Source: Vermamoeba vermiformis (Eukaryota). From it: a stretch of 64,000 bases of DNA. Below, piece after piece: positions 10,619-58,433 of this stretch (positions within the stretch are counted from its first letter, which is position 1; every line of letters begins with the position of its first letter). A program made the translations under genes and the position numbers. The stretch lies in contig JBEWZL010000257.1 in assembly GCA_045837725.1 (NCBI GenBank), forward strand, positions 186,001-250,000, given 5' to 3'. The notes below the pieces were generated by a model that saw only the letters and a program-made list of their open reading frames with translations, had not been told where the DNA came from and did not search any database.

Positions 10619-12429
10619 ATGGAGACTAACGCGAACAATATTCAGCCAAGCGATTCTTCCACAAAGCAGAAGTTGACCGTGCTCAATATCGGTGTGCTCG
10701 GGCACATCGACAGTGGCAAGACGTCGCTGTGTGCTAGTCTGTCCACGGTATTGTCAACAGCTGCACTGGACAAATCTCCGCAGTCTGTTGAGCGCGGCAT
10801 TACTCTTGACTTGCAGTTCTCTGCTTTCACGCTGGATGTGCCTGAAAATTGTTCAAATCCGAATGTCAGCGGCCACAAAAAAATTCTTGTTTCACTAGTG
10901 GATTGTCCTGGCCATGCGTCATTAATTCGCACTATTATTGGTGGTAAGTCAATTGTACCTGATTTTTAATTGAATTTTTGAATTAAAATTGAATTTATTT
11001 AACTCTCGCACTATCCTAGGCGCGCAAATCATCGACATGGTGCTGCTCGTGATTGATGTCACCAAAGGCATTCAAACACAGACCGCTGAAGGCATTGTGG
11101 TCGCAGAAGTGACTACCAACAAGATGGTGATCGTACTCAACAAGGTGGATCTGCTGCCGCCGAACGAGGCTGAAGCGCGCATGACGAAGGTCACTGCGAC
11201 CATCAAGCGGGCACTGGCCGGCTCCAAGTTCGCCGATGCCCCCATCATCCCCTACGCCGCACGTCCCGCGAGTCCCACCACGAGCAGTGCTGCAGCGCTG
11301 CACGGCGCCATTCTCGCAGCAGCACCGAGTCTGACGCGCACGGACACGGACAGCAAGCACTTCTTGATGCTCGTCGATCACTGCTTTGCACTCAAGGGCA
11401 AGGGCACTGTCTGCACGGGCACGGTGCTGCGCGGAAGTATCTCCGTCGGTCAGTCCGTGGAATTTCCTAATTTGGGTGAGACCAAGAAAGTCAAGTCCAT
11501 TCACATCTTTCACGAGCCACACGACACGGCGCAGCAAGGTGATCGCATTGGCATGTTGGTGACACAACTCGACAGTCAACAGCTCGAGCGCGGCTATGCG
11601 TGCTATCCTGGCGCCATTCACAGCGGCGTGACGCACGTGTTGAGCAGCGTGCAGCAGATCAAGTACTTCAAAGCGGACCTCGCCTCGCAACAAACACTGC
11701 ACGTGACCATTGGCCACTACACCACCACCGCACGACTCGTGTTCATGAACAGTGCCGTGGACCCGAGCAGCAGTGAGTTCGGGGAGTGGTCTGCGCACGA
11801 GTATCCGTACGTGCCTGTCCTGCCCAGTGTCAAGAGCACTGACGCGCAAGTGACACCTGTCAAACACTATCTCGCACTCATCGAGTTCGACAAGCCCATG
11901 TTAGTGCCACCACATGCGCTATTAATAGCCTCAAAGCTCGACGCAGATATTCGTAAGTAGATCTCACTTTGACACGTGTCACGCGCTGACAGTCACGTGA
12001 CAGATCTGAATCAGTGTCGCATTGCCTTCAGCGGTCACGTGATCAGCACGCTGCAGCAGTCGCAGCTCGCGGAGCTCAAGATCTTCAAGACCAAGCACAA
12101 GCGCGGCGAGATTGAGCGTGTAAGTGCACATGTGTTGTCACGTGCCAGGGGACTAACCGCGACAGATGAATGACGAGCGCAATGCCATTGGTCGCAATCT
12201 GTTCAAGAAAGAGACGGACATGAACAAGTTCACCAACATGCACGTGACCATTGAGCGCGAGGGCAGCGTGATTGCGCGCGGTGTGATTGAGGGCGCATTC
12301 GGCAAGAGCGGCAAGTTCAAAGTGCGTCTCAGTCACGTGGAGAGTGGCGTGAGTGTGCAGCCACGTGATCAGATTGTACTGGCACTCAAACGATACACTT
12401 TTGATAAGACCAAGCGCAACTATCAGTAG
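10619..12429 (+). CDS. EEFSEC: Selenocysteine-specific elongation factor eEFSec, multi-exon
   Basis: NIGVLGHIDSGKT, AALDKSPQSVERGITLDL, VDCPGHASLIRTIIGGAQIID, GIQTQTAE, DHCF, SKLDADI...CRIAF, GVIEGAFGKSGKFK. Confidence 0.95.
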
Positions 12430-42949: not shown

Positions 42950-43092
42950 GTCCCCTCACGCCCTTGTATCGGACTCACTTGTATCATAGTAATTATCGTT
43001 TGTACAAACACGCGCAATTTTATTTCAACTGGTCAAAATAATTTGATTAATTTTATCAATAAGCATAATAATAACAAGCACAAAACAACGCC

Positions 43093-43718
43093 ATGAATCA
43101 AATAGACACTAGTATGTACCCACCACATATACAGAAGCTTTTCGAAAAGCAAAAACAGCAACGTGCAGCGGTGGAAGCAGATCGCATGACCATGCCCGTG
43201 AAAGAAGGGCCCAAGACCGCTCAATTGCGCGAATATTTGCATCGACGACTCGCAGTGGAGATATCTGACGGCAGACGATTCGAAGGACGATTTATGAGCT
43301 ACGACAAACAACAAAATATCGTACTCACTGAATGCATTGAAATTAGAAAGACTGTTCCTATTCCCAAACCACTAGGTAATTATAAGGCACATATTTCGCA
43401 TTTAATTCTTATTTTTTGAAATTATTAATCCAAATATTTTCTGTTGCAGAAGAGGATCTGTTGTCAAAAGACAAGAACAAACCAGAGGATGAAGCATTGA
43501 TGACTATAATTGAAGATAAAAAGCGAGGCATTAGTCGTCGCAATTTAATGGGCTGCGTGCTCATTCCTGGCAAACACATCCAAAAGGTCTATCTTGATCT
43601 CAATTCCAAAGATGATTTAACCTCACCCCAAGATATCAATACACCTAATAATACAACTTATGTCAATACAACGGATAATAAGCTGAATACTGCTTCTGAG
43701 ACAGCAGCCGCGAAATAA
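43093..43718 (+). CDS. LSm-domain protein, probably NatC auxiliary subunit NAA38/Mak31
   Basis: LHRRLAVEISDGRRFEGRFMSYDKQQNIVLTEC (Sm1) ... MGCVLIPGKHIQKV (Sm2). Confidence 0.8.
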
Positions 43719-44041
43719 ACCTGACCCAGGTTCCTTGAACTCGAGGCGTTTCCGTTTAAAATCTGTATTTAAGTTGGACGGATCTAGCTCGCGATGCTAC
43801 TTACATGGGGCTAACATAATACAAGTCAATTTTCATACTTACCCACTCCATGTTAAATATGCGTGCCGACGTCATTACCCGATCCATTTTCGTTTTTCGA
43901 CTTGTTTTTTATTTTTCAAATAACTGAACACGGCAAGTCAAACAACGCTAGATCATACTTGCCTTCATTCAACGTTATTTGATCTTAGCACTATTGACAA
44001 CCACCACTGCTGTATGAGAAGTTAGATTTACAAGTTTAATC

Positions 44042-45177
44042 ATGGATGCAACAAAAGTTGCTGAAACAAGCGATAATAATATGCGATATATTGCACATAT
44101 CGCAGGCATGGTGGCTGCATTGTGTTTCTTTGTTCAGTAAGTCCTTCATATTAACGGTTAATTTTTCAATATTTACAAAAAATCGGGAGAATTTATATCG
44201 CTTGATGATCATCAAACTTCAATATTATTACCATAGATATATGTTAAATAATATGCTTTTAGATATGTACCGCAAATGTGGTTAAACTATCAACGAAAAC
44301 ATGTCAAAGGGTTCAGCAAACTCGGCATTGTTATAAAACACGTTGGTGCGTCATTTCTCTGGGTGAACAGCATGATATTAGGCGGTACGTCATATACAAC
44401 CCGTTATACTATTCTTTGAGTATGCTCATACTTGGATCAGAGACCTTTTCAGTGATTAGCTACGGTCTGTTCAATGTGTTGCAGCACTCGACCTTCATGC
44501 TACAGTAAGCACACTATATATATGCCTCGTCTATTATCACCACCGCTCACCACACGCGCAGGTTCACACTGTACGGCGACACACCCGAGTCCAAGGGCAA
44601 TTCGAACTACTTGTTGTGGCTCATGTTCCCCCTCGTGCCTGCCATGCTCGGCATGCGCTATCCAAACACGATCAGTACGTTGCATTGAACTCGCATTGTA
44701 GCTGCGACTGACAGCTGTCTTTAGCACTCACCAACTCGTTCAAGCCCATTGCGCAGGTGTTGAGTCACTTGCCACAGCTCGCGGAGTGCATCAAATTGAA
44801 GACGACGATTGGCTGCTCGTTGATGTCGCAACACATCAATTTTGTTGGCGGGTTGTTGGGCCTGTTCAGTACGTCACTGTTGTGTACCCGTGGATGATAT
44901 ACCTATTAACCCTATTGTTCCCGCAGTGTGCTATTGGATTCCACCCGTCGCTAAAACTACCTACTTAATTTATTTATTCTCGACGCTGCAAGCTGTCTCG
45001 ATTTATTTCCTCGCATTTAAATACGGAGAACTCTTCAATCGCACTGGACCTGCCAAATTTAGTAAGTGCTCAATATAGTACTAACATGTGCCTTCGTACT
45101 GACCGCGTGTGGTAGAACAAGACGGTGACAGGGAACCAGGCAACAATGGTCTGGACCTCAAAGAAGTCAAAGTGTGA
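44042..45177 (+). CDS. PQ-loop repeat membrane transporter, multi-exon
   Basis: Spliced reading ...CFFVQ/YVPQMWLNYQRKHVKGFS... and LSHLPQLAECIKLKTTIGCS gives two PQ-loop repeats with hydrophobic helices. Confidence 0.8.
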
Positions 45178-45282
45178 ATATGAGCGGAGAATAGCATCAA
45201 AATCTCTTTTGTAAATAAATCAACTGCGAATTAACTCGAGGAGCGGACAGGTACAATAACAGCGCTATTTATAGCTCACTTT

Positions 45283-46662
45283 TTACAACTTGAGACCCAT
45301 CTCTTCGAAGGCAATCTTTCGCTCTTCAAGCAGTTCTTGTGCCGTCAAGTCCATCTTTTGGCGCGAGAAGTTGTCAATGCTGAGTCCTTGCACAATCTTC
45401 CACTCGCCGTTGTGGCACGAGACTGGGTACGAGTACACGAGACCCTTGGGCACGTTGTAGCTGCCGTCAGACACCACTGCCATAGAGACCCACTCGCCCT
45501 AATCACTGATGGTTAGTACGACAATATTGGAACTAATGGCACGTGACACATACAGCAGGAGTGCCCAAGAACCAGTCGCGCACGTGATCGACAATGGCAC
45601 GTGCAGCTGAAAGAGCGCTGCTCTGACCTCGCGCGTCCAAGATAGCAGCACCACGCTTTTGAATCTTCGTCACGAATTCAGTGTTGAGATAGGTGTCGTC
45701 ATTGAGCACGCGACGAATGGCCAAACGAGGTTCATTGGGCTGAAGTGTCAATCAGTATACTTTCTATATTAGGAGAATTCTGGATATACCTTCGCGAGTA
45801 CGGCGTGATTGACATCAGGGTACTGCGTGGCCGAGTGATTGCCCCAAATAGTGACGCCCTTCACAGAGGAGGGTGCTACGTGCAGTTGATTGGCCAATGA
45901 GCCCACAGCGCGGTTGTGATCCAAGCGAGTGAGTGCCGAGAAGTTTTTGGCGGGAATATTCGGTGCAAACTGTTGCGCCAAGAGACAGTTGGTGTTGGCA
46001 GGATTACCGACAACAAGGACCTAGTTAATAGCAATAGTTAGCTCACTGTAATAGTAATATTATGGAGGTCAGGTACCTTGACATTACGTGAAGCAAAATC
46101 ATTGAGGGCTTGGCCTTGAGCCTTGAAAATCTTGCCGTTTTGAGACAACAAGTCCTTGCGCTCCATACCCGGCTTTCTTGGGAAAGCTCCGACGAGGATA
46201 GCGACATCTACGTCTTTGAAACCAACTTTGGGATCTGAAGTGGCCACAATGCCCTCAAGGAGTTCAAAGGCACCATCTTCTAATTCCATAACGACGCCTG
46301 TATTATAATCATTTAGTAAATTTATATTGAATTTTTATTTTAATTTTGTTGCGTCTCGGTGAATTATTGAAAATTTCTGCTGCAAGGCTTTATATAATTG
46401 TGCGATACGAACCCTTGAGTGCTTTCTCGGCTTGTGGAATTTCTAACAAATGCAAAATGACTTTGCGATTGGGGCCGAACATTTGACCGCTGGCGATCAG
46501 CGGCAACAAAGCGTAGCCGATCTGACCAGCAGCACCAGTGACAACTACACGAAGAGTCTTTTGAGAGTCTACACCACCCGTTGGTTGCACAGTCAAGTCA
46601 GCGGCGGCTTGAGATTGAGCGAGGTGTGAAGTCAAGACTTGGATGCGACGATTGGCTTGCAT
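45283..46662 (-). CDS. Malate dehydrogenase (MDH1/cytosolic-type fold) with N-terminal PTS2 peroxisomal signal, 5 exons
   Basis: [67 protein letters not shown]-terminal RIQVLTSHL. Confidence 0.96.
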
Positions 46663-47455
46663 TGCGGACTAATATTATGATATGGCTTTATAGTATACAG
46701 AAGTGAAGGCTATTGAAAATGAACGAAACATTTCGCGAGCCATTTTACTCAGGCACGTGCTAAACTGGTGTACCAATTTAAATCACTCTTTAAAGCTGTA
46801 ATGCTCAAATCTCGTTACATCGTGGCTGGACAGCTCTTGCCTTAAGTAAAGATTAATTTTAACCGGCATAAAAGAAAGATATCTCGAGAGGTCCGACTAG
46901 ATCTAAATATGGTTATTCTTAGTTCATGCGCCCGGCACGAGTGGGTGTCTCAGATTGAGCATAATTAGCACTCCTACTCCCTTCGGTGCTTAAACAGAGT
47001 TCTATGTGTTGTTACTTAGCTCCCGGTATCGTGTCGATCCGATTTCAAACCTTTGAATCCAGCTGAATAAGCATACTGAACACAACTGCACTACAATCTT
47101 TGCTAATTGATGGTCTATTGTTGGCAATTTAAATACCTCCCTAAAATTGCCTCAATCTGTATTCACCGGAGATTTGCTGCGTATCTTCAGTAAATTTGAA
47201 ATCAGGTAAAAATCTTTTTCGATTTTGTGATCCTGTTGAAATTGAAAAATACCGCTGTGTCTGTAAATAGCACTTAGTATTCGCCTTTTTACTCCACCGA
47301 ACTGGACCTCGCAAACTTATTTGTACTGTACAAATCCGCAATTTATTCACAAAAAAAAACTACTATCTAGCCTCTACTACAAAATTGGTTAGAAATAGTG
47401 TTGCTGCACTGTATACTACACTACTACGCCATTGCTGGCTGAATGGGGTGGGTTG

Positions 47456-48661
47456 TTATTGGGTGGTAATGAATCTGGGTGAGCTCGAACCATCGCGCGT
47501 AGACTCCATAGACATGGGATAGTTATAAGTCTCGCTGCAGGTTGTTGTCATATTAATGGGTTGTTGAAAGAGGACCACTAACGGCACCTTGTTGGGTGCT
47601 TGACAGCTTACAACATCCGAAGTTGCAGGTCTTTCTACGAGATTATTGATGCCCAATCGAGTGCTCGTTGGTGCAGCTAATGTGGTGTTCTTCGGTGTAA
47701 TGCTCGTGGTGAATTTGACTGGCATAAAGCCTTGTTTCTTCAATTGCTCGTCGCGATGTATCTCAGTATCCAGGGTTGAGAGAATGTTTGCAATGCTCTT
47801 GCGACGTTGAGTGCCTGGTGAGTCAGGTCGCGGTACATTTGAGTTGGCGGCAGAACTATTGGATATGGCAGTCTTAATGACCGGCAACGAAGGAGCCGAC
47901 TGAGGCGAAGAGGGCACTGATTTGCTCTCCGATGATGATGTATCGCAGCTAAGGTCGGAACTCTTTCTCTTCTGCTTTTGTCTATACTTCTAAAGTCGGA
48001 ATAGTTCGGTTAATTAATGTTCAAAACTGATCAGATCAATTTCGCAAATGACAACACAAAAAAAAAAGATACGATACGATTCTCATTTAATGATTTCAAG
48101 GAATAGGAACACATGCGTAAAAGCGCTCAAGCTTTGGCGAAACTTACTTGCAAGTGGCTGGCAACGTGCTCTCGAGTGAGTCCTTCAACGTTCATATACC
48201 GCAAAATCAATGTTGGGACAGCTATAGAGAAATTGACATTAGTACGATGACCCAATAATATGGTACAAGCAAGTATCGGCAATAAAGGGTCGTCAGATCA
48301 ACATTGAATAACGCCAAATAAGGAAAGATTCATCCGTGAAGGGGAGATTAACGGGAGATAAAGATTTTTGATATGAAGACGTGTGCGAGTGCAAAATACT
48401 TGCAAAATTGTATCATAAATTGTGAAGTAAATCGAATTAGATCCGATTCCGAAACATTACTGAAGTAGCATGAGGAACTGGAAAGACATTTTTACCTTTG
48501 TCACCGAGCGCGGCAAGTGCTTTTTTGAACTTTGTGTGCAGAGCTTTGTCCCAAACCAAGCGGTTTGAGACGGACCTCTTCACGAGAGAGACGTCGTTCT
48601 CCATCTTATAGCGCCATCGCTTGTCGTTGCTATGTGTCGAGTCGATCTGCATCTCAGACAT
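47456..48661 (-). CDS. GARP/G2-like MYB (SHAQKY-class) transcription factor, 3 exons
   Basis: Spliced reading RLVWDKALHTKFKKALAALGDK / AVPTLILRYMNVEGLTREHVASHLQ / KYRQKQKR is a canonical GARP DNA-binding domain, followed by an S/P/T-rich tail. Confidence 0.92.
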
Positions 48662-49917
48662 TGATAGTAATGTACAATAGTATTAACAAAGATATATATA
48701 CAATAGAAAAGCCTGAAAGGCTGAAAGTTTAGTGACGCGTGGTCGTCTGTGTAGGAAAAAAGATTGAATGGGTTTTGTGAAGTTTGTCGCTTTTTATTTT
48801 TTCGGCCGATGATTCTTCCGCAAAACTAAAACACGTGATGTATCCGCCGATGAGCGCACAAATATTAATGCACCGAACATAGACATTTCCCACGTGAGGC
48901 TTTATCATCTCATACTATTTGAAAGTTGGATTCTATGTTTGCCTCTTTATAAAGCTGATCTCCGATAAAGGATCGAGATCTAGTCTTGTAAATTGCTATT
49001 TTGAATTTTGCCTCACTTTTCAATGAGATATGCCTTTATTTTTCTATATCGCAACCATGGTAGACGACCGGTCCACTTGCTGTCGCAGGACGGTCCGATG
49101 AGAATCTTTGTAGTGTCGATCTGTCCGCAATATCTTTTTGGAATGCATTTAGAAGCATAACCGAACATGAATACGGGCCGTGGGAAGATACTCTCCATTT
49201 AATATAAACTTCTTGTGTGCTGATAATTGACTTTTAAGGTCATTCACAACGATTAATTAACACAGACACGGAATTACCGCAATGCCCATAAGTCGGGTTA
49301 AGTACCCAACACAAATCCTCGGGCCCAAAATCTTTTCGGACGACACTTTTGGCACGCGATTTTTGAGTACCAGAGAATCCAAACTATTTCATAGTTTAGT
49401 GCAGCAGATCTCGTTAAATCGCTGCAATGGCAATATCAATCGCGCTACTTGATTGCCAACTATTAAAATTATTAGTATATCGGCATTTGTATGGGTTTTA
49501 TACCGATTGTAACACGCAATAAATAGTGAATTAATGTTTCATTGAAACAAACACTGAACTGTCATTCGTCATTCGAGATCGAACTTCGGAGCTCAATGAA
49601 ACTGAACACAAGCGGTTTTAACTTACCATTTCACCCATGCAAGATAACATATCGGCGTAAAAGGAACTGGCACTGCGAGCGCGGAGGAGTTGACATCCGG
49701 GTGATCCAAGCAGAGCGAGTTTGATGAACTTGTTTGTACCACTAGGTAACTAATGTCGATGAACGTATTAGCAACGGGACGTATTTCGTAAATACGCAAA
49801 GTGTCATCAAAGTGACGAGCGGATTTTGCCGAGCAGATATTAAATTTCCTTATTAGGCTAAAATTTAATTTAACGATTTAGATTTACCGAATCTTTTGGT
49901 CGCCTTTCTTCGGAGTA

Positions 49918-50855
49918 TCAGCTGTCATGCAGCTCGTCGAGTGCACTAACCAACTCTTGCAAGTCGGTTGGGATTGAGCATTTCAGACCTCGTTTCAATC
50001 GCGTTTTCAGCATGGCCTGCAGTCGTTTGAGCTCATCGCCAGTGGGCAGAGCTATGTTGTCTTCAACGTAGTGCTCTACTATTCTTCTAACTTGCTCCGC
50101 TGGTGCTTCGCCGTCGACGATCAGTACGTCGTCCCTGTCACGAAGAGGTTTGTTGTACTTGACGTAATGTGGCCACAACAGCTCTTCAAAGTACTTGACA
50201 GGCACTGCTTTAGTTCGCATGCGCCGTTCAAAGCAAGTCTGTTTGCTGATGCTCAAAAACACCTTCTTGTCGAATAACGCGCAGAGTGTTGGCCGCTGGA
50301 AGAGCAAAAAGCCCTCTACGATGATATAATGTGGTTTGTTATATGCTTTGGTCTTTTTGATTTTCTTTTCTAACGTCTTTTTAGCTTGGATAATATCTTC
50401 TTCGAGTTTTGCTGAATCTAGAGCTTCAGGACATTCCTAAAGCCTATTGTTATTAACTCGAACATGATATGAGCAATTTCATACCCAGTTTTCATATTTA
50501 GTCTTCTTGTGGATGGGGAGGTCTGTCTAACGGTAATTTCAGTGTGCGAGCACAAGCACAAATAATTATCGTTTAAATAATTTTACCTTGAAGTATACAT
50601 CCTGGCAAAATACAGTGCCCACTCCGAGGTCGTACTTCTCACTAAAAGCTCGGATTAACGAACTTTTGCCGCTAAAATTTGTAAGTAAATATTTTTTTAT
50701 TGCCGGTTATTTAATCGAGAATAATTTGGAATTACTTGTTATGAATTATAATTAAAATAATCTGCAATAGGTAAACTCATTAAATATTATTACCTGCGTG
50801 TCGCTCCAGCAATACCGACTATAATGATATTAATATTTTTCTTAGTCTCTGCCAT
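49918..50855 (-). CDS. Nicotinamide riboside kinase / uridine kinase-like P-loop kinase, multi-exon
   Basis: IVGIAGATR/SGKSSL, CQDVYFK, NW/ECPEALD, IIVEGFLLF, CFERR...YFEELLWPHY. The NWxxPEALD and YFxxxxWPxY motifs favour NRK. Confidence 0.82.
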
Positions 50856-51238
50856 TTTTGTTTACGAATTCTGCAGGTCGCGCAGTGTTCTTCCTCTGCG
50901 TGTTGCAGTCAACATTGATTCGAATGACACGTGTTTCATGAACTGCTTGCAATTCATCAAATAGACTCGTAATTAACTGCTGGCAACTCTAGTACTGGTC
51001 CCAGGTAGTGTTCAATAATACTACGCGTTTACTCATGTGCACCGCAATGGTACGAGCCGCGTGTAAGAATTTGCGCGGTATATTTTCGAGGTCGCAATAT
51101 CACAATAATATCAGTAATAGTCGCATTCAGTATTTAACGATTTATTTTTGTACAGGTACTCAAATGAAGCGCCGCTGAGACATCTTCACTCAAGGTAATT
51201 AAATTAAATTCGCAGTTATTCGATAGTGTTCGACAGCA

Positions 51239-52829
51239 TTACAGCTTGCTGTTGTGGTGGAATTGTTGTTCTTCAGTGGAGCCCTTGAGCGCAGAAGTCG
51301 AGCTCTGACCACCAGTGATGGTCATCAAAATCTTGTCGAAGTAGCCAGTACCAACTTCGCGTTGATGCTTGGTGGCAGTGTAGCCAGCTTTTTCAGCAGC
51401 GAATTCTTGTTGTTGCAACTCGACGTAAGCAGTCATGCCCTTTTCAGTGTATTTCTTGGCCAAGTCGAAGGTGTAGAAGTTGACGGTGTGCCAGCCAGCG
51501 AGAGTGATGAATTGGAACTTGTAGCCCATGCGACCGAGCTCTTGTTGGAAGGTAGCGATGGTCTTGTCGTCCAAGTGCATCTTCCAGTTGAAAGAAGGCG
51601 AGCAGTTGTAGGCCAACAACTTGCCGGGGAACTTGGCGTGAATGGCTTGAGCGAATTGGCGAGCTTGTTCCATATCGGGCTCAGAGGTCTCGAACCAGAG
51701 CAAGTCGGCGTAAGGAGCATAAGCGAGACCACGGTGAATGGCAGACTCGAGGCCAGCCTTGACGCGGAAGTAGCCTTCAGGAGTGCGCTCAGAGCTCTCG
51801 AGGAACGGACGGTCATAAGGGTCCACATCGCTGGTCATCAATGTGGCACCAAGAGCGTCAGTGCGGGCAATGATGATGGTGGGGGTCTCGAGCACATCAG
51901 TGGCGAGACGAGCACCGATCAAAGTCTTGACGAATTGAGAAGTGGGCACGAGGACCTTACCGCCCAAGTGACCGCACTTCTTTTCAGAGGCGAGTTGATC
52001 TTCAAAGTGAACACCAGCAGCACCAGCTTCAATCATGGCCTTGGTCAACTCAAAACCGTGCAAAGGACCACCGAATCCGGCTTCAGCATCGGCAACGATG
52101 GGCAAGAACCAGTTACGAGGAGGCTTGCCTTCAGATCTAATATGAACAGTAAGTATTGGTTGAAGATATTGCAATTGTTTCTAGAAGATCTGATCGGAAA
52201 AATGCATTACCTGTCGATTTCGTCACCACGCATCATAGCGTTGTTGAGTCTGCGGATCAAGTTGGGCACACTGTTGCTGGGGTAGAGAGATTGATCGGGA
52301 TAAGTGTTCAAGCTCAAGTTGGCATCAGCGGCCACTTGCCAGCCAGACAAGTAGACGGATTTGACGCCAGCCTTGACCATCTGCACAGCTTGGGCACCAG
52401 TCATGGCACCGAATGTGGCAACGTAGGGCTCGGAGTGGAGCAACTTCCACAAGTTCTCAGCGCCAAACTTGGCAATGGAGTACTCGATCTTCAAGGAGGT
52501 GCGCAAGGCAACAACTTCTTCAGGAGTGTAAGGGCGTTGGACACCTAGACGAAGATATTATATTAGTTCTGCAATCTATTTTAGGATTGTTTTTGTTTAA
52601 ACAATTTTGACGTTTTCGTGGGCCCGAATTTCTACGAGTTCCACGCATAAACGTTAGAAAAAATCAACCAGGGCTACTAAACAATTCAGAAACAGCCACA
52701 GAACAGTAGAAACAATCGGGACTGATATCTTGGTCTTAAAGTCGCAGACTGATACTTGCCTTTGTATCGGGGGCTGGTCCATTGTTCCTTCAAAATGCGG
52801 ACTTGTTGTTCGGGAGTGCCTCTCAACAT
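51239..52829 (-). CDS. ICL: Isocitrate lyase, short (AceA-like) form, C-terminal PTS1 SKL, 3 exons
   Basis: [41 protein letters not shown] (catalytic), [25 protein letters not shown]; ends HNSKL*. Confidence 0.98.
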
Positions 52830-53356
52830 ATTTGATTATCTAATACGCAAACATTAGCATAGTTACAGAAAAGATTGAGGAACGATTTGATTTGATTTGA
52901 TCGATACATTACGGAATTAAATAAAAAAGTTTTTTCGATCGAGTTCGAAAGTGTCAAACAAGCGTGGGACTTGACCGCGTACCAGTTGTAAAGTATGGGG
53001 TTAGAACGGGTGTAGACTGCGAGTAGCGTCGCGAGATGTGTTCGTTGCTTGCTAAAAGCTAATTGAATGAATAGGCACGGTGGATCCCGACCGCTTTTTA
53101 CAGCTTCCTCGCCCAGGGCTTTCCAGGGCTCTCCGAAGGAAATCCGCCCAAAATTCGAAGGTTTATTTGCGAGCCAGTGGGAAAAAGTCACAAACCTTAA
53201 CCAAAACAGTCAGTGAAATTATAACTGCGTGAAATTTCAGTGAGTTGAGACTTGCTGCCCGATTATTTGGCAAGCAAGCTTAGGAACGCAATAACAAAAG
53301 AATCTTTCCAGCACTCGTACTCGCGCAACTTAGTTAGAAACTTTGTAACGAACATC
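52830..53356. promoter_or_regulatory. Putative bidirectional promoter shared by ICL and malate synthase
   Basis: 527 nt between divergent start codons (52829 on -, 53357 on +). Confidence 0.6.
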
Positions 53357-55821
53357 ATGAATACGAACAGAACACCCGTTGGAGTTAGCGTTCTCGGACA
53401 ACGCAATGCTGATGCAGAGAAGATCTTGACGCCAGGTGCTTTAGAGTTCTTGGCTCAATTGCACCGCAACTTTGGCATGCGCCGATTGAAGTTGTTGAAG
53501 GCCCGCAGCAATCGTCTCAAGAGGTAAACAATTAATTTCTGTTGGTGAAGGCACCGCAATTAATTTTTTTATACTTGCCTAGTATTGGATACAATCATTA
53601 ATATGATACCTAATTGTTTCCGTATTTATTTAAAATTTTGGTTGCGGAAATGGGTCCGGTGCAGGATCTGTTTCAAAAAAACAATTACTGATTCACAAAA
53701 CCCTTAACTAAACAAATACCATTGCTTCAGACTTCAAGAAGGTGTCGAGGTATTGGACTTTTTGCCTCAAACAAAGCAAATCCGCAACAACCCTCACTGG
53801 CGCGTGGCTCCCGCACCAAAGGATCTGGACAAACGATGGGTTGAAATTACTGGCCCCGTCGACCGCAAAATGGTAATTGTGACGTGATTCGCTCATGCCG
53901 TTCAGTATTAATTTTGACACTTATGCACTAATTGGGACCGCGGATCAGATCTTGTATTTACTGAACTGATTTCCTGAACAAATCTGATTCAATACCACAT
54001 TATACACGCATCGGTAGAGCACGACCGAATTTCCTATTGAAATCACTCGACTGTGCAGAGTGCAATCAAGTTTTTCAATTTAGAAATAACATTTTGAATT
54101 CGACCGAGTTTTCTTCGCGATCAAGTGCGATGCACTGACCGATATATATCATATTAATGCTTAATTACCACTATTTCTATTAGTTGACATCGAGTTTATG
54201 TTATTTGGTGACTGATCAAGTTCGCAGGTCATCAACGCGTTGAACTCTGGTGCCGACTGCTTTATGGCTGATTTTGAGGACAGTTTGACTCCTCGATGGT
54301 AAGTCATATTAAATATGTCTTATCCGAGCCTAGCGCTTCTATTTCTTGTGGGTTACGGATTTGCTCTTGGGTTTTTTAGAAGAACCGACGATTAAACGCA
54401 GTACCAACAGTAAATCTAATTATATCGATTAGGGACAAGCTGCTTAATGGCCAAGTTAACCTTATGGACGCGGTGCGAAGAAAAATTGAGTTTGCCAAGT
54501 AAGCGGATCCGCTCCATTCAATTGCACTCGACTAATCGCGATTATTATTATAGTCCTGATGGCAAGAAGTACATCTTGAAGTCCGACAGCAAGACCACTT
54601 TGATTGTGCGTCCTCGTGGCTGGCACTTGAACGAGAGATTCTTGCGTAAGTGCTGCAGATCTGACTCGCGCACCTCAATGCACAAATTACGCCTAATTTT
54701 AATAATTATTATTCATATCTAATATGCTCGTTATTGCAGTGGTCGATGGCCAGCCAATGTCAGGCAGTTTGTTCGACTTCGGGCTCTACTTCTACCACAA
54801 CGCCAAAGAATTGTTGTCGCGCGGCTCAGGACCTTATTTCTACTTGCCTAAAATGGAAAGTCACTTGGAGGCTCGTCTCTGGAACAACGTCTTCAACTTC
54901 GCTCAGGACTACATGGACATTCCTCGCGGCACCATTCGCGCGACAGTGTTGATTGAGACACTGCCTGCTGCCTTTGAAATGGAAGAAATTCTGTACGAGC
55001 TGCGTGACCACGCCGCTGGTCTCAATGCTGGTCGCTGGGACTACATCTTCAGCGCCATCAAGAAGAGCTACTGGAACAACAAGACCATTCTGCCTGACCG
55101 CGCTCAAGTCACGATGACTGTGCCCTTCATGCGCTCTTATGTCCTCGCCATGGTCGCTACTTGCCATCGCCGCGGAGCTCACGCCATTGGTGGCATGTCC
55201 GCAGTCATTCCTTCAGGCGAGAACAAAGAAGTGTTCGACAAGGTGCGCGCTGACAAAGAGCGTGAGGTGAATGACGGTTGTGATGGCTCGTGGGTCGCTC
55301 ACCCTGGTCTCGTGGACACTGTGCGCAAGGTGTTCGAGGCCAAGTTGGGCACCAAGAACAATCAAAAGGACAGACTTCGCGAGGACGTTAAAGTTACCGC
55401 GGAACAACTGCGCAACGTTGGTGTAACGGACGGCAAGATCACTGAGGCAGGCATGCGCATGAACATCGATGTCGCCTTGCAATATTTGAACTCGTGGTTG
55501 CTCGGCAACGGCGCTGCTGCCATTCACGGACTGATGGAAGACGCAGCCACCGCTGAGATTTCGCGTACTCAGATTTGGCAGTGGATCTATCACGCTTCCA
55601 AGCTCGATGACGGTCGCACGATCACTCGCGACTTGTACCGCAAGATGATGGAAGAAGAGTACCGCAGATTGACGCAAAATGTCAAGGCGGGCAACAGATT
55701 CAAGGACGCCGCAGAGATTTTGAACAATTTGATCTTGCGCGACGACCTCGTTGACTTCTTGACCCTCCCTGCCTACGACTACTTGTCTGACGGTGTTACG
55801 TCCCTCACTTCCAAGTTGTAA
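53357..55821 (+). CDS. Malate synthase (type A, AceB-like), C-terminal PTS1 SKL, multi-exon
   Basis: [26 protein letters not shown] / INALNSGA...[62 protein letters not shown]; ends TSKL*. Confidence 0.98.
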
Positions 55822-55922
55822 TTTTCTATATCTAGTGTAGATAAACTTTCCATTGTATTCAGAGCTTCGATAACATTATTTATTCGCGCAAAAAAAGAAA
55901 TACAGTAATTATCAAGGGAGTC

Positions 55923-58433
55923 TTATTTGTGTTCTTCATCACTGTCCATAAACAGCTCGTCGTCCATTTGATCAATCAACTCTTGGCGGTACTCTTCGAA
56001 TGTGCCGTCGTAGACTTGTACCTTTTGATCGCCGCACACCCAAAGCTCATCGCACACTTTGGAGATCAAGCGCTGATCGTGACTGATCAACACAACAGCG
56101 CCTTGGAACTCAGCCAATGACTCGCTCAACGCGTCAACACTTTGAATGTCCAAGTGATTCGTGGGCTCGTCGAGCAACAAAATGTGAGGCAATTCGAGTG
56201 ACAACGTGCACAAGGCGACACGTGACTTTTGACCACCAGAGAGCAGTTGAATGGGCTGCAAATGAGTCTTGCCGCTGAGGCCGAACTTGCCCAATGTGTT
56301 ACGCACTTCTTGGGGCTTGAGTTCGGGGAACTTCTTGCCAACAAACTCGACAGGCGTGTCAGTCATAGTCAACTGATCGACAAAGTGCTGCGAGAACTTG
56401 GAGACGCGCAGCTTGCGGTTGCGAATGATCTCACCGCTGACCGGGTTCAAGTCACCCAAAATCAAGTTCATCAATGTGGACTTGCCAATACCGTTAGGAC
56501 CCACAATAGCAACACGACTCTCCATACCGACATTCAACTCGACCTAAAACAGACATTAATATTTGACACGTGTCATGAAATCAGGCTTACGTTGCGGAAC
56601 AAAATCTTTTCAGGCGAGTAACCAAAAGTGACGTCTTTGATCTGCACGACAGGAATGCTGAGTGGTCCAGGGTCAGCGAAAATGAACTTGACGCTGTACT
56701 CTTTGTCATCGCGCTGCAACAATCCCTCTTTTTCCATCTTTTTCTTCTTGTCGTTGGCAGTCTTGGTCTGTTTCTCTTGCAATTTGTTCTTTTCTTTCTC
56801 TTGCAACTTGTATTTCTTGTCGCGTTGCTTCTTCTTGTCCAAAAAAATCTTTTCGAATGAGTCGTAATCGCCCTTGTAGTAGTCAAGGCGTTGTTTGTGC
56901 AAGTGAATAATGTCTGTCACAATGTAGTTCAAGAAATCTCTGTCGTGTGACACGACCTAATCATTCGATTAGTACCGATAACTGACAATAGAGGCACATC
57001 GGTGCGGTACTTACGAGCAATGTTTTCTTCCACTTGCGCAAATAGGCTTCGAGCCAAATGACGGCGTTCAAGTCCAAGTGATTGGTCGGCTCGTCGAGCA
57101 ACAACAAATCAGGGCTCAAGAACAAGGCACGGGCCAAAGCGATACGCATACGCCAACCACCGCTAAAACAGCCTATTAGCCAAGACCATAGCAATCAGAC
57201 TACTATTGTATTGCACGTACCTAAATTTCTTCGTGGGCATCTTCTTCATTTCTTCGGTGAATTGCAAACCAGACAAAATAGCTGAAGCACTGTGACAATG
57301 ACACGGTGAGTTAAAGTGTCACAAATGCGAGTAATTAACGACACTACGTACCGGCCCTCAGCTGAGTAGGCATTGATTTCTTTGAGTCGCTTGTACACTT
57401 CCATCAAGCGGTCGTTGGCTTTGAAGCCCTCGTCAGTGTTCTCAGCGGACACCTTTTTGAGCTCTTTTTCTTCGGCCAACAGTTGCAATCGCTCTTGATC
57501 GGCTTCCAACACAGCGTCCAAGGCGAGAGTGTCAGTACCTTCGACCTGCGGGGTGGATCACGTGCGTTAGTGGTGCATCAACGGGTGACAATGTAACTGT
57601 GAAATATTTACCTCTTGTTCGACGTGCAGAATGCGAATGTGCGCGGGGATGGGCAAGTGACGTTGCGAAATGTGTTTCAACAAGGTACTTTTACCTGCAA
57701 ATAGTACTGTTAGTTACTGCAATATTAAAGACCTGGATCTGCGCGAGGATCCAGTCTTGAGTGATAAGACATACCCATGCCGTTAGGGCCAATAAGACCG
57801 TATTTGCGACCGTATGAAATTTTCAAGTCAGCGTCGTGGAAGAGAACTTTGCCGTGATAGGCCAAAGTGAACTTTTCGACTTGGATGTCCTTGGTGTTGG
57901 ATGTGATCACACCCTTTTTTGCTTCATAGCTCTGCAAAGCACTCTCATTTTGTTCACGTGCAATATAGGCCTCCTTAGACTCGACTTGTTGGCTAGCTCC
58001 GTAGTTAGGGTCGAGCATCTGGCGCTGTTCCTCCGTGAGCTTGCCCTAAGAGATCGAACAAATGTAAGTATTTTCTAAAATTTTAGTAATTAAATTCTTA
58101 TCAATAAATTCATACCGCTTTGCGCAATTTGTTTAATTTTCTCAAATCCTTTTTGGTTAATTTTTTCTGGCCTCCAGGAGCAGTCTTATCGTCGTCTTGA
58201 CCGTCTTCACCGCTCTCCTCATCACTGCCATCCTTTTCAGGGTTCTCTTGTGGCTCTTTCTTAATTACATTGCCTTCCTCGTCGAACTCAGCATCCGAGT
58301 CGTAATCCTCTTCAGGTTCGGGTTCATAAGAGGGCTTCTTTTGCTGCTCCTTCTTCTTGGGCTCTGATTGTTGCTTGCCTGCGCCCTTCTTGGCGTTGGC
58401 AGCATTATTATTGTTCTTATTTTTTGAAGACAT
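55923..58433 (-). CDS. ABCF-family (TM-less) ABC ATPase, multi-exon
   Basis: Two NBDs (GPNGMGKS...FSGGWRMR...[19 protein letters not shown]...LSGGQKSR...[10 protein letters not shown]); charged N-terminal extension; no TM segments. Confidence 0.95.

Follow-up and report, generated by a model that had tools for sequence, protein, structure and literature searches.

We analysed a window of 64,000 nucleotides from the amoeba Vermamoeba vermiformis (contig JBEWZL010000257.1, positions 186,001 to 250,000 of the forward strand), in which the segment 45283-55821 carries five intron-containing genes. These encode a malate dehydrogenase (MDH), a SHAQKYF/GARP-class MYB protein, an NRK-like kinase, an isocitrate lyase (ICL), and a malate synthase (MS). 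ICL and MS are arranged head to head, i.e. they are transcribed divergently, with 527 bp between their ATG codons. We consider it probable that this pair stems from a bacterial glyoxylate-shunt (ace) operon of a Chloroflexota-like source, which was horizontally acquired, inverted, and retargeted to peroxisomes, and that MDH is a gene of the host. The linkage of ICL and MS is attributed to bacterial inheritance, because the two genes are of bacterial type, share their bacterial neighbours in phylogenetic trees, and lie side by side in 55 of 80 bacterial loci.

Gene models were built by coordinates from open frames and GT/GC-AG rules, reading both strands; families were assigned on the basis of single exons and of orthologs with 96-98% identity. 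All five genes were found where an initial annotation of the window had placed them; the models were rebuilt and the families matched. MDH, ICL, and MS are three non-homologous genes of one pathway; the segment that holds them spans five genes and 10.5 kb. That annotation had called them "three consecutive enzymes", a wording which does not fit the layout: As it said itself, MDH and ICL are separated by two unrelated genes, and the start of MDH is 4.6 kb away from the stop of ICL. The elements of the pathway are the following:

52829-51239, minus strand: ICL, short bacterial type, 433 residues, ending NSKL; three coding exons (52829-52760, 52544-52211, 52136-51239)
52830-53356, no strand: divergent ICL-MS upstream region, 527 bp from ATG to ATG, containing the ICL 5' untranslated region (UTR) with an intron
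53357-55821, plus strand: malate synthase A, 539 residues, ending TSKL; six exons (53357-53523, 53731-53872, 54228-54298, 54433-54498, 54554-54645, 54740-55821)
46662-45283, minus strand: MDH, eukaryotic cytosolic type, 367 residues; five exons (46662-46413, 46297-46077, 46020-45790, 45739-45554, 45498-45283)

Bacterial relatives of the ICL-MS pair

The Pfam family ICL was matched on both ICL exons tested. Exon 3 aligned in one stretch to ICLs of bacterial size (428-450 residues; E-values 2e-140 to 1e-124) and in two stretches to those of fungal size (538-563 residues; 5e-78 or weaker); this is why the enzyme is assigned to the short bacterial type. In agreement with this assignment, the model PRK15063 with its 430 positions is matched from end to end by the 98% identical ortholog P0003 (728 bits), and the protein is devoid of the insertion typical of plant and fungal ICLs, which is described as a mark of that type in PMC1630690. 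Homologs were taken from the 120 top-scoring among 8000 proteins. For ICL, this set contained three proteins at 97-98% identity, all ending NSKL; the nearest named copy is one of these and is listed in EukProt as 'Vermamoeba_vermiformis' (Amoebozoa, Tubulinea). All remaining matches in the set were at 71-78%; those with a name come from bacteria (Ardenticatenia, Oligoflexia, Roseiflexus, Marinithermus).

On exons 1 and 6 of MS, the Pfam domains MS_N, MS_TIM-barrel, and MS_C were matched; exon 2 gave no Pfam match. The 97% identical ortholog P0121 scored 744.8 with TIGR01344 (malate synthase A), the cut-off being 594.5. Among the best 120 of 8000 proteins, five were 96-97% identical to the window MS and one (P0126) 73%; the others were at most 68% identical, down to 62%, the named ones being Caldilineaceae, Thermomicrobium, and Anaerolineae. 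P0126 ends ANL and is sister to the amoeba clade; its existence suggests that the uptake may have taken place before two rather distant lineages separated. P0126 and its cluster lie on contigs of the Joint Genome Institute (JGI) of up to 6.9 kb. The window MS groups with bacterial MSs that are encoded beside an ICL. According to a study from 2023 (PMC10120013), true MSs are separated from ureidoglycolate-lyase-like proteins, and eukaryotic MSs are intermixed with bacterial ones.

In order to assess gene order, one genome per prokaryotic species was scanned and the best 80 loci out of at least 595 stretches were kept. MS and ICL were adjacent on the same strand in 55 of these 80 loci, 47 times in the order MS→ICL and eight times in the order ICL→MS; the flanks of the other 25 contained no MS, and none of the 80 was divergent. 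In metagenomes, the two genes were adjacent on one strand in 22 of 25 loci. These 25 loci had been collected with MS exon 6; all were bacterial in look and at most 55% identical, and no close eukaryotic contig was among them. The best of the 80 loci was the same for both genes, namely L026 from the Ardenticatenaceae, with 72.9% identity for ICL and 62.5% for MS.

The trees led to the same bacterial neighbours. In a quick IQ-TREE tree of MS, the amoeba clade including P0126 belonged to a set of nine rows together with four Chloroflexota (SH-aLRT, the Shimodaira-Hasegawa-like approximate likelihood ratio test, 95; FastTree 98). After the addition of 121 cluster representatives, a FastTree calculation with 178 rows gave the same four Chloroflexota with a support of 97. 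In the corresponding IQ-TREE tree of ICL, the set comprised 15 rows, among them seven Chloroflexota, three Gemmatimonadota, and one Bdellovibrionota (SH-aLRT 99). The loci nearest to ICL and to MS are shared: L026, L027, L045, and L054, followed by L043, L029, L046, and L044.

These data bear on the number of transfers. ICL and MS could have arrived in two separate events, or in one event followed by a later chance juxtaposition; the ICL set with its three phyla is broader than the MS set, and for the nematodes and Nematostella Kondrashov et al. (PMC1630690) describe ICL and MS as clustering with different bacteria. However, the nearest loci and the single best locus are the same for both genes of Vermamoeba, and the genes are adjacent in most of the sampled bacteria, such that one event suffices for all observations. 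We therefore regard separate arrivals as improbable.

More improbable still is a vertical descent from ancestral eukaryotic genes, with the likeness to Chloroflexota being caused by slow evolution or by a transfer from a eukaryote to a bacterium. In favour of such a descent, one can state that the trees are devoid of named eukaryotic sequences and that a second, more distant lineage, represented by P0126, has the same MS. Against this, the amoeba clade is nested among operon-carrying bacteria of several phyla, and the plant/fungal-type insertion (PMC1630690) is lacking in ICL. Moreover, six of the 121 added representatives are fusions of more than 900 residues (967-1192), i.e. forms of eukaryotic size; these are only 39-50% identical to the window MS and lie far from it in the tree. 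A kinship of the Vermamoeba pair with the fused MS-ICL forms was ruled out by this identity and this distance, which points to a separate event as the putative source of the fusions.

Splicing, peroxisomal signals and the malate dehydrogenase

For positions 43001-58000, RNA data were available from three raw runs (one study, same species label) and one contig set. The raw reads are 95-99% alike to the window and thus belong to another strain; more than 60% of them (322/507, 339/493, and 356/498) fit only in part. Splice joints were counted among 15 listed joints out of 38; among these, at least 10 of the 16 modelled coding introns were confirmed. An RNA contig shows all five MS introns spliced out, and for two of these the raw reads do so as well. 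Both coding introns of ICL are likewise spliced in an RNA contig; the one of 74 nucleotides was seen in five raw reads as well, and the first one (52545-52759, minus strand), whose removal was seen in the contig, is of the GC-AG type. A joint for a further intron of ~145 nucleotides (about 52840-52982) was found in the ICL 5' UTR. As the contigs extend to ~53031 on the ICL side and begin at 53324 on the MS side, the stretch between the two genes that is devoid of transcript evidence comprises at most ~53032-53323. For MDH, one of four introns was seen among the listed joints (45499-45553, 36 reads), for MYB both introns; no intron of the NRK-like gene was confirmed among the listed joints.

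These joints settle the question whether the ICL-MS stretch is a bacterial contamination or a chimeric assembly. The high identity to bacterial proteins (71-78% for ICL and 62-68% for MS) would be in line with such an artefact. However, this explanation is refuted by the splice joints: All seven coding introns, which are of the GT-AG or GC-AG type, are missing from an RNA contig, and raw reads confirm the removal of three of these. In addition, the genes recur independently in a transcriptome and in other runs, and the bacterial homologs compared do not have the C-terminal signals described below. Finally, the window is eukaryotic nuclear DNA with short introns, and the stretch is unbroken, with eukaryotic housekeeping genes continuing on either side. 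The neighbours are ordinary eukaryotic genes, namely POLR3C, a kinase, WD40 proteins, RRS1, a SelB-like factor, dynamin, Nup192, ABC-F, and CAND1. The GC content at third codon positions is 0.63 for ICL and 0.65 for MS; the other 10 coding stretches of the window have values of 0.52-0.72.

The C-termini of both enzymes fit the consensus [SA][KR][LMI] of a type 1 peroxisomal targeting signal (PTS1), with NSKL in ICL and TSKL in MS. SKL is retained in all three close copies of ICL and in all five of MS. A PTS1-like tripeptide at the C-terminus was absent from all 13 bacterial ICLs and all 15 bacterial MSs in the alignments; the amoeba proteins extend past the bacterial ends by 4-5 residues in ICL and by 9 residues in MS, in both cases reaching SKL. 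Judged from these alignments, the SKL tails are add-ons relative to the bacterial proteins.

The Pfam domains Ldh_1_N/Ldh_1_C were found on all five exons of MDH (on exon 1 under the cut-off), and its 96% identical ortholog P0241 scored 504.8 with TIGR01758 (MDH_euk_cyt; cut-off 470.4). The protein has an N-terminal extension of ~37 residues with the motif RIQVLTSHL at residues 6-14. According to PMC7710942, a type 2 signal (PTS2) follows the pattern [RK][LVI]x5[HQ][LAF], in which position 5 is hydrophobic; the MDH motif fits it as RIx5HL, with leucine at position 5 and within the first 40 residues. Among 105 MDH matches of at least 300 residues, nine had the motif, eight in canonical form and one with alanine at position 2; all nine belong to one set of 19 rows. 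These relatives, one of which is Difflugia compressa (EukProt), are 56-62% identical to the window MDH; in the alignment, R[LIVA]x5HL is shared and the surrounding extension is not conserved. The closest named MDH, that of Arcella intermedia (65%), is devoid of the extension. Based on these comparisons, MDH is a host cytosolic-type enzyme that appears to have gained and kept a PTS2. An arrival of MDH together with the operon was ruled out, as it is of the eukaryotic cytosolic type (TIGR01758) and no cytosolic-type MDH lies beside the 80 bacterial loci (tblastn, E ≤ 1e-20; the query would miss an LDH-like bacterial MDH).

Taken together, the signals make a peroxisomal targeting of ICL, MS, and MDH likely. 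The claim of the initial annotation that all three enzymes carry such signals is thus plausible.

The course of events that we propose is as follows. An ancestor of the amoeba would have taken up an operon consisting of MS A and ICL from a Chloroflexota-like bacterium in a single co-transfer. The two genes would have remained neighbours, and one of them would have been inverted, which led to outward transcription from a shared region of ~0.5 kb; from this region they may also be co-regulated. Both would have gained spliceosomal introns and a host-like codon composition, and each enzyme would have acquired a short SKL tail, allowing it to enter the peroxisome, presumably via the PTS1/PEX5 route. 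In the same organelle, the nearby host PTS2-MDH would oxidise malate, the product of MS, or serve in the shuttling of reducing equivalents.

Several points weigh against this proposal. Divergent order occurs in none of the 77 bacterial loci having the pair (55 genomic plus 22 metagenomic ones), so that an inversion must be assumed. The homolog searches were length-limited in addition to being confined to the best 120 proteins, and the nearest donor group was drawn from a sample, i.e. the best 80 loci of at least 595 stretches. Named eukaryotes such as Dictyostelium, Acanthamoeba, Nematostella, algae, and fungi are missing from the ICL and MS trees; given this sampling, the date of the transfer is not fixed, and the clade may hold other eukaryotes as well. 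Support values are from SH-aLRT or FastTree only. Import into peroxisomes is predicted from motifs alone. Finally, the raw RNA depth of ICL and MS is ~0-2 compared to 10-32 for the ABC-F gene; these reads come from another strain, and their depth says nothing on induction.

The MYB gene, the NRK-like kinase and the question of a regulated cluster

Two further genes lie between MDH and ICL:

48661-47456, minus strand: SHAQKYF/GARP-class MYB, 257 residues, with the motif SHLQKYR; three exons (48661-48496, 48221-48148, 47989-47456)
50855-49918, minus strand: P-loop kinase of the NRK/uridine-kinase family, 235 residues; four exons (50855-50794, 50671-50587, 50526-50485, 50436-49918)

For the MYB protein, the profile TIGR01557 (myb_SHAQKYF) was matched by exon 2 with 32.1 bits (cut-off 29.3; profile positions 28-51) and weakly by exon 1 (E-value 0.01; positions 2-23); an intron splits the domain, and the scores are given per exon. 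Exon 4 of the NRK-like gene, the only exon scored, matched PDB structures of human NRK1 with an E-value of 3e-8 and the Atlas NRK2 cluster with 0.94; matches to the uridine kinase model NF004018 (1.4e-6) and to Pfam PRK (0.17) were both far under the cut-offs. Thus, the sequence modestly supports the identity of this kinase as an NRK. At the level of exons, Pfam gave nothing usable for either gene.

The initial annotation had interpreted the locus as a co-regulated eukaryotic cluster, possibly with its own regulator. In such a selected cluster, the co-location of MDH, ICL, and MS with the MYB regulator, and perhaps with the NRK-like kinase, would aid a co-regulated peroxisomal use of acetate and lipids. 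We consider this unlikely, although the presence of three enzymes with peroxisomal signals in so short a segment speaks for it, and the odds of finding a related neighbour by chance are about 1 in 100 (a rough value, based on ~30 related genes, ~16 kb, and an assumed genome size of ~50 Mb). Furthermore, the word depth in the contig set was 15.5 for ICL, 13.5 for MS, and 9.9 for MDH, compared to 9.1 for ABC-F, and in the raw runs all three were far below ABC-F; the depths of the three genes moving together can be taken as a weak hint. However, the linkage of ICL and MS is inherited and needs no selection for clustering.

Neither the MYB nor the NRK-like protein has a PTS1 or a PTS2. No k-mer is shared beyond chance by the ICL-MS upstream region and the upstream regions of MDH, MYB, and NRK: The longest shared k-mer has a length of 9, compared to a mean of 9.4 in the null model, and this length was reached in 83.5% of 200 shuffles. 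One 8-mer occurs upstream of both MYB (49101) and MS (53299, 58 bp before the start); it was rejected as regulatory evidence, as its two copies in 64 kb are at the chance level (2.36 expected) and the word had been picked after the fact. In the three raw runs, which offer no contrast of conditions, MYB and MDH were expressed, ICL and MS were low, and NRK was silent. The depth values were ~0-2 for ICL and MS, ~0 for NRK, 0.5-6 for MDH, 1-13 for MYB, and 10-32 for the neighbouring ABC-F gene; they were taken only as transcribed or not, and genes were not ranked by them.

As there are no targeting signals and no shared upstream words, and as the RNA levels do not follow those of ICL and MS in the small number of runs analysed, nothing connects either MYB or the NRK-like kinase with the pathway. 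Hence, the proposed roles of MYB as a regulator and of the kinase as a member of the cluster found no support, and both are probably bystanders. A regulated cluster of all five genes is unproven and unlikely. What stands of the idea of an operon-like eukaryotic cluster, besides the three enzymes and their plausible peroxisomal signals, is the short divergent upstream region of ICL and MS; their linkage as such is better explained by the bacterial ace operon. MDH may lie near ICL and MS due to selection or by chance. An extended version of the acquisition scenario, to which we assign a low probability, would be a peroxisomal module of three enzymes built around the acquired operon, in which the host PTS2-MDH was kept or moved nearby and the GARP-type MYB acts as a switch, for example in starvation or encystment.

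A number of observations concern these genes and their surroundings. The MYB transcript ends near 47320 on its 3' side, as marked by a poly(A)-like loose end. In MYB exon 1 (48526-48662) and in the 3' UTR (47357-47393), raw reads show joints between opposite strands, and long loose read ends occur at 48526, 48562, and 48662; the opposite-strand joints may reflect an inverted duplication in the other strain or fold-back artefacts of the library. At 46664 (MDH) and 48662 (MYB), i.e. 1-2 bases upstream of the ATG codons, the reads of the other strain stop matching and continue with unlike sequence; therefore, the 5' UTRs of MDH and MYB diverge sharply between the strains. The unlike sequence differs between the two genes and does not look like a common spliced leader. 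Between the start of MYB and the stop of the NRK-like gene (48662-49917), 1.25 kb contain no obvious gene, which is long for a gene-dense window; RNA depth is near zero past the 5' end of MYB. At a distance from the locus, an exon at 10974-11957 (plus strand) matches the eukaryotic selenocysteine-specific elongation factor (euk_SelB_III, E-value 9e-19); therefore, selenoprotein synthesis probably takes place in this organism.

Comparison with known systems and significance

Plants and yeasts possess a peroxisomal glyoxylate cycle with a PTS1 on ICL and MS, and the peroxisomal MDH of plants, which is of the mitochondrial-like class, carries a PTS2. The enzymes of Vermamoeba resemble this system with respect to their signals, i.e. 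[SA][KR][LMI] on ICL and MS and the RIx5HL-type motif on MDH. In contrast, plant and fungal ICLs are of the long eukaryotic type and their genes are unlinked, whereas the ICL described here is short and linked to MS; moreover, MDH is of the cytosolic class (TIGR01758) and not of the mitochondrial-like class. In bacterial aceBA(K) operons, the same two enzymes, MS A and a short ICL, are directly adjacent as in the amoeba, but the genes are co-directional, co-transcribed, and devoid of introns and targeting tails.

A search of one literature library retrieved no paper on this Vermamoeba locus, nothing relevant on head-to-head or bidirectional ICL/MS pairs, and no paper uniting ICL, MS, peroxisomes, amoeba, and PTS1. 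A paper that names both Vermamoeba and isocitrate lyase deals with a viral ribosomal protein. ICL and MS may already be listed in the tables of transferred genes or the supplements of the V. vermiformis draft-genome paper (Sci Rep 2020).

The most similar case is that of Nematostella vectensis, for which PMC1630690 describes a bacterial-type ICL and MS which are nuclear, contain introns, and lie on opposite strands in 5'-5' orientation; such a juxtaposition is presented there as an otherwise bacterial trait, and the pair was read as an ace operon with one gene inverted. According to the same study, the two genes of Nematostella cluster with different bacteria, and its authors consider an assembly artefact possible. 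In Vermamoeba, by contrast, both genes have Chloroflexota-like neighbours in common, splicing was seen in RNA, SKL tails are present, and a PTS2-MDH is nearby. Kondrashov et al. (2006, PMC1630690) described that nematodes and Euglena received ace operons by transfer, which are found there as fusions, and an MS-ICL fusion of Acanthamoeba was reported in mitochondria (2026, PMC13632651). These forms, too, are explained by an uptake of bacterial ace operons in which the juxtaposition was kept; there, however, the enzymes are single polypeptides, whereas those of Vermamoeba are encoded by two distinct genes in divergent orientation and carry peroxisomal tags. Operon-derived linkage of ICL and MS in eukaryotes has thus been in print since 2006, and nothing is overturned by our analysis. 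The features of its own that this locus adds are the Chloroflexota-like affinity of both genes, the peroxisomal tails on both, the RNA-proven splicing, and the PTS2-MDH nearby.

If our interpretation is correct, the locus illustrates, with clean support from RNA, the conversion of a bacterial operon into eukaryotic genes: One gene is inverted, introns are gained, codon usage is ameliorated, and tails of 4-9 residues redirect both enzymes to an organelle. In contrast to this locus, the fusion of Acanthamoeba is reported in mitochondria (PMC13632651); Amoebozoa would thus have established this pathway on two occasions, each time in another compartment. The PTS2-tagged MDH of the cytosolic class, conserved in Tubulinea, suggests that the peroxisomal malate/oxaloacetate step relies on a class of MDH other than that of plants. 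Should the module of three enzymes exist, it would be a gene cluster of primary metabolism seeded by horizontal transfer. The locus makes testable the question whether horizontally acquired gene pairs attract functionally related genes of the host.

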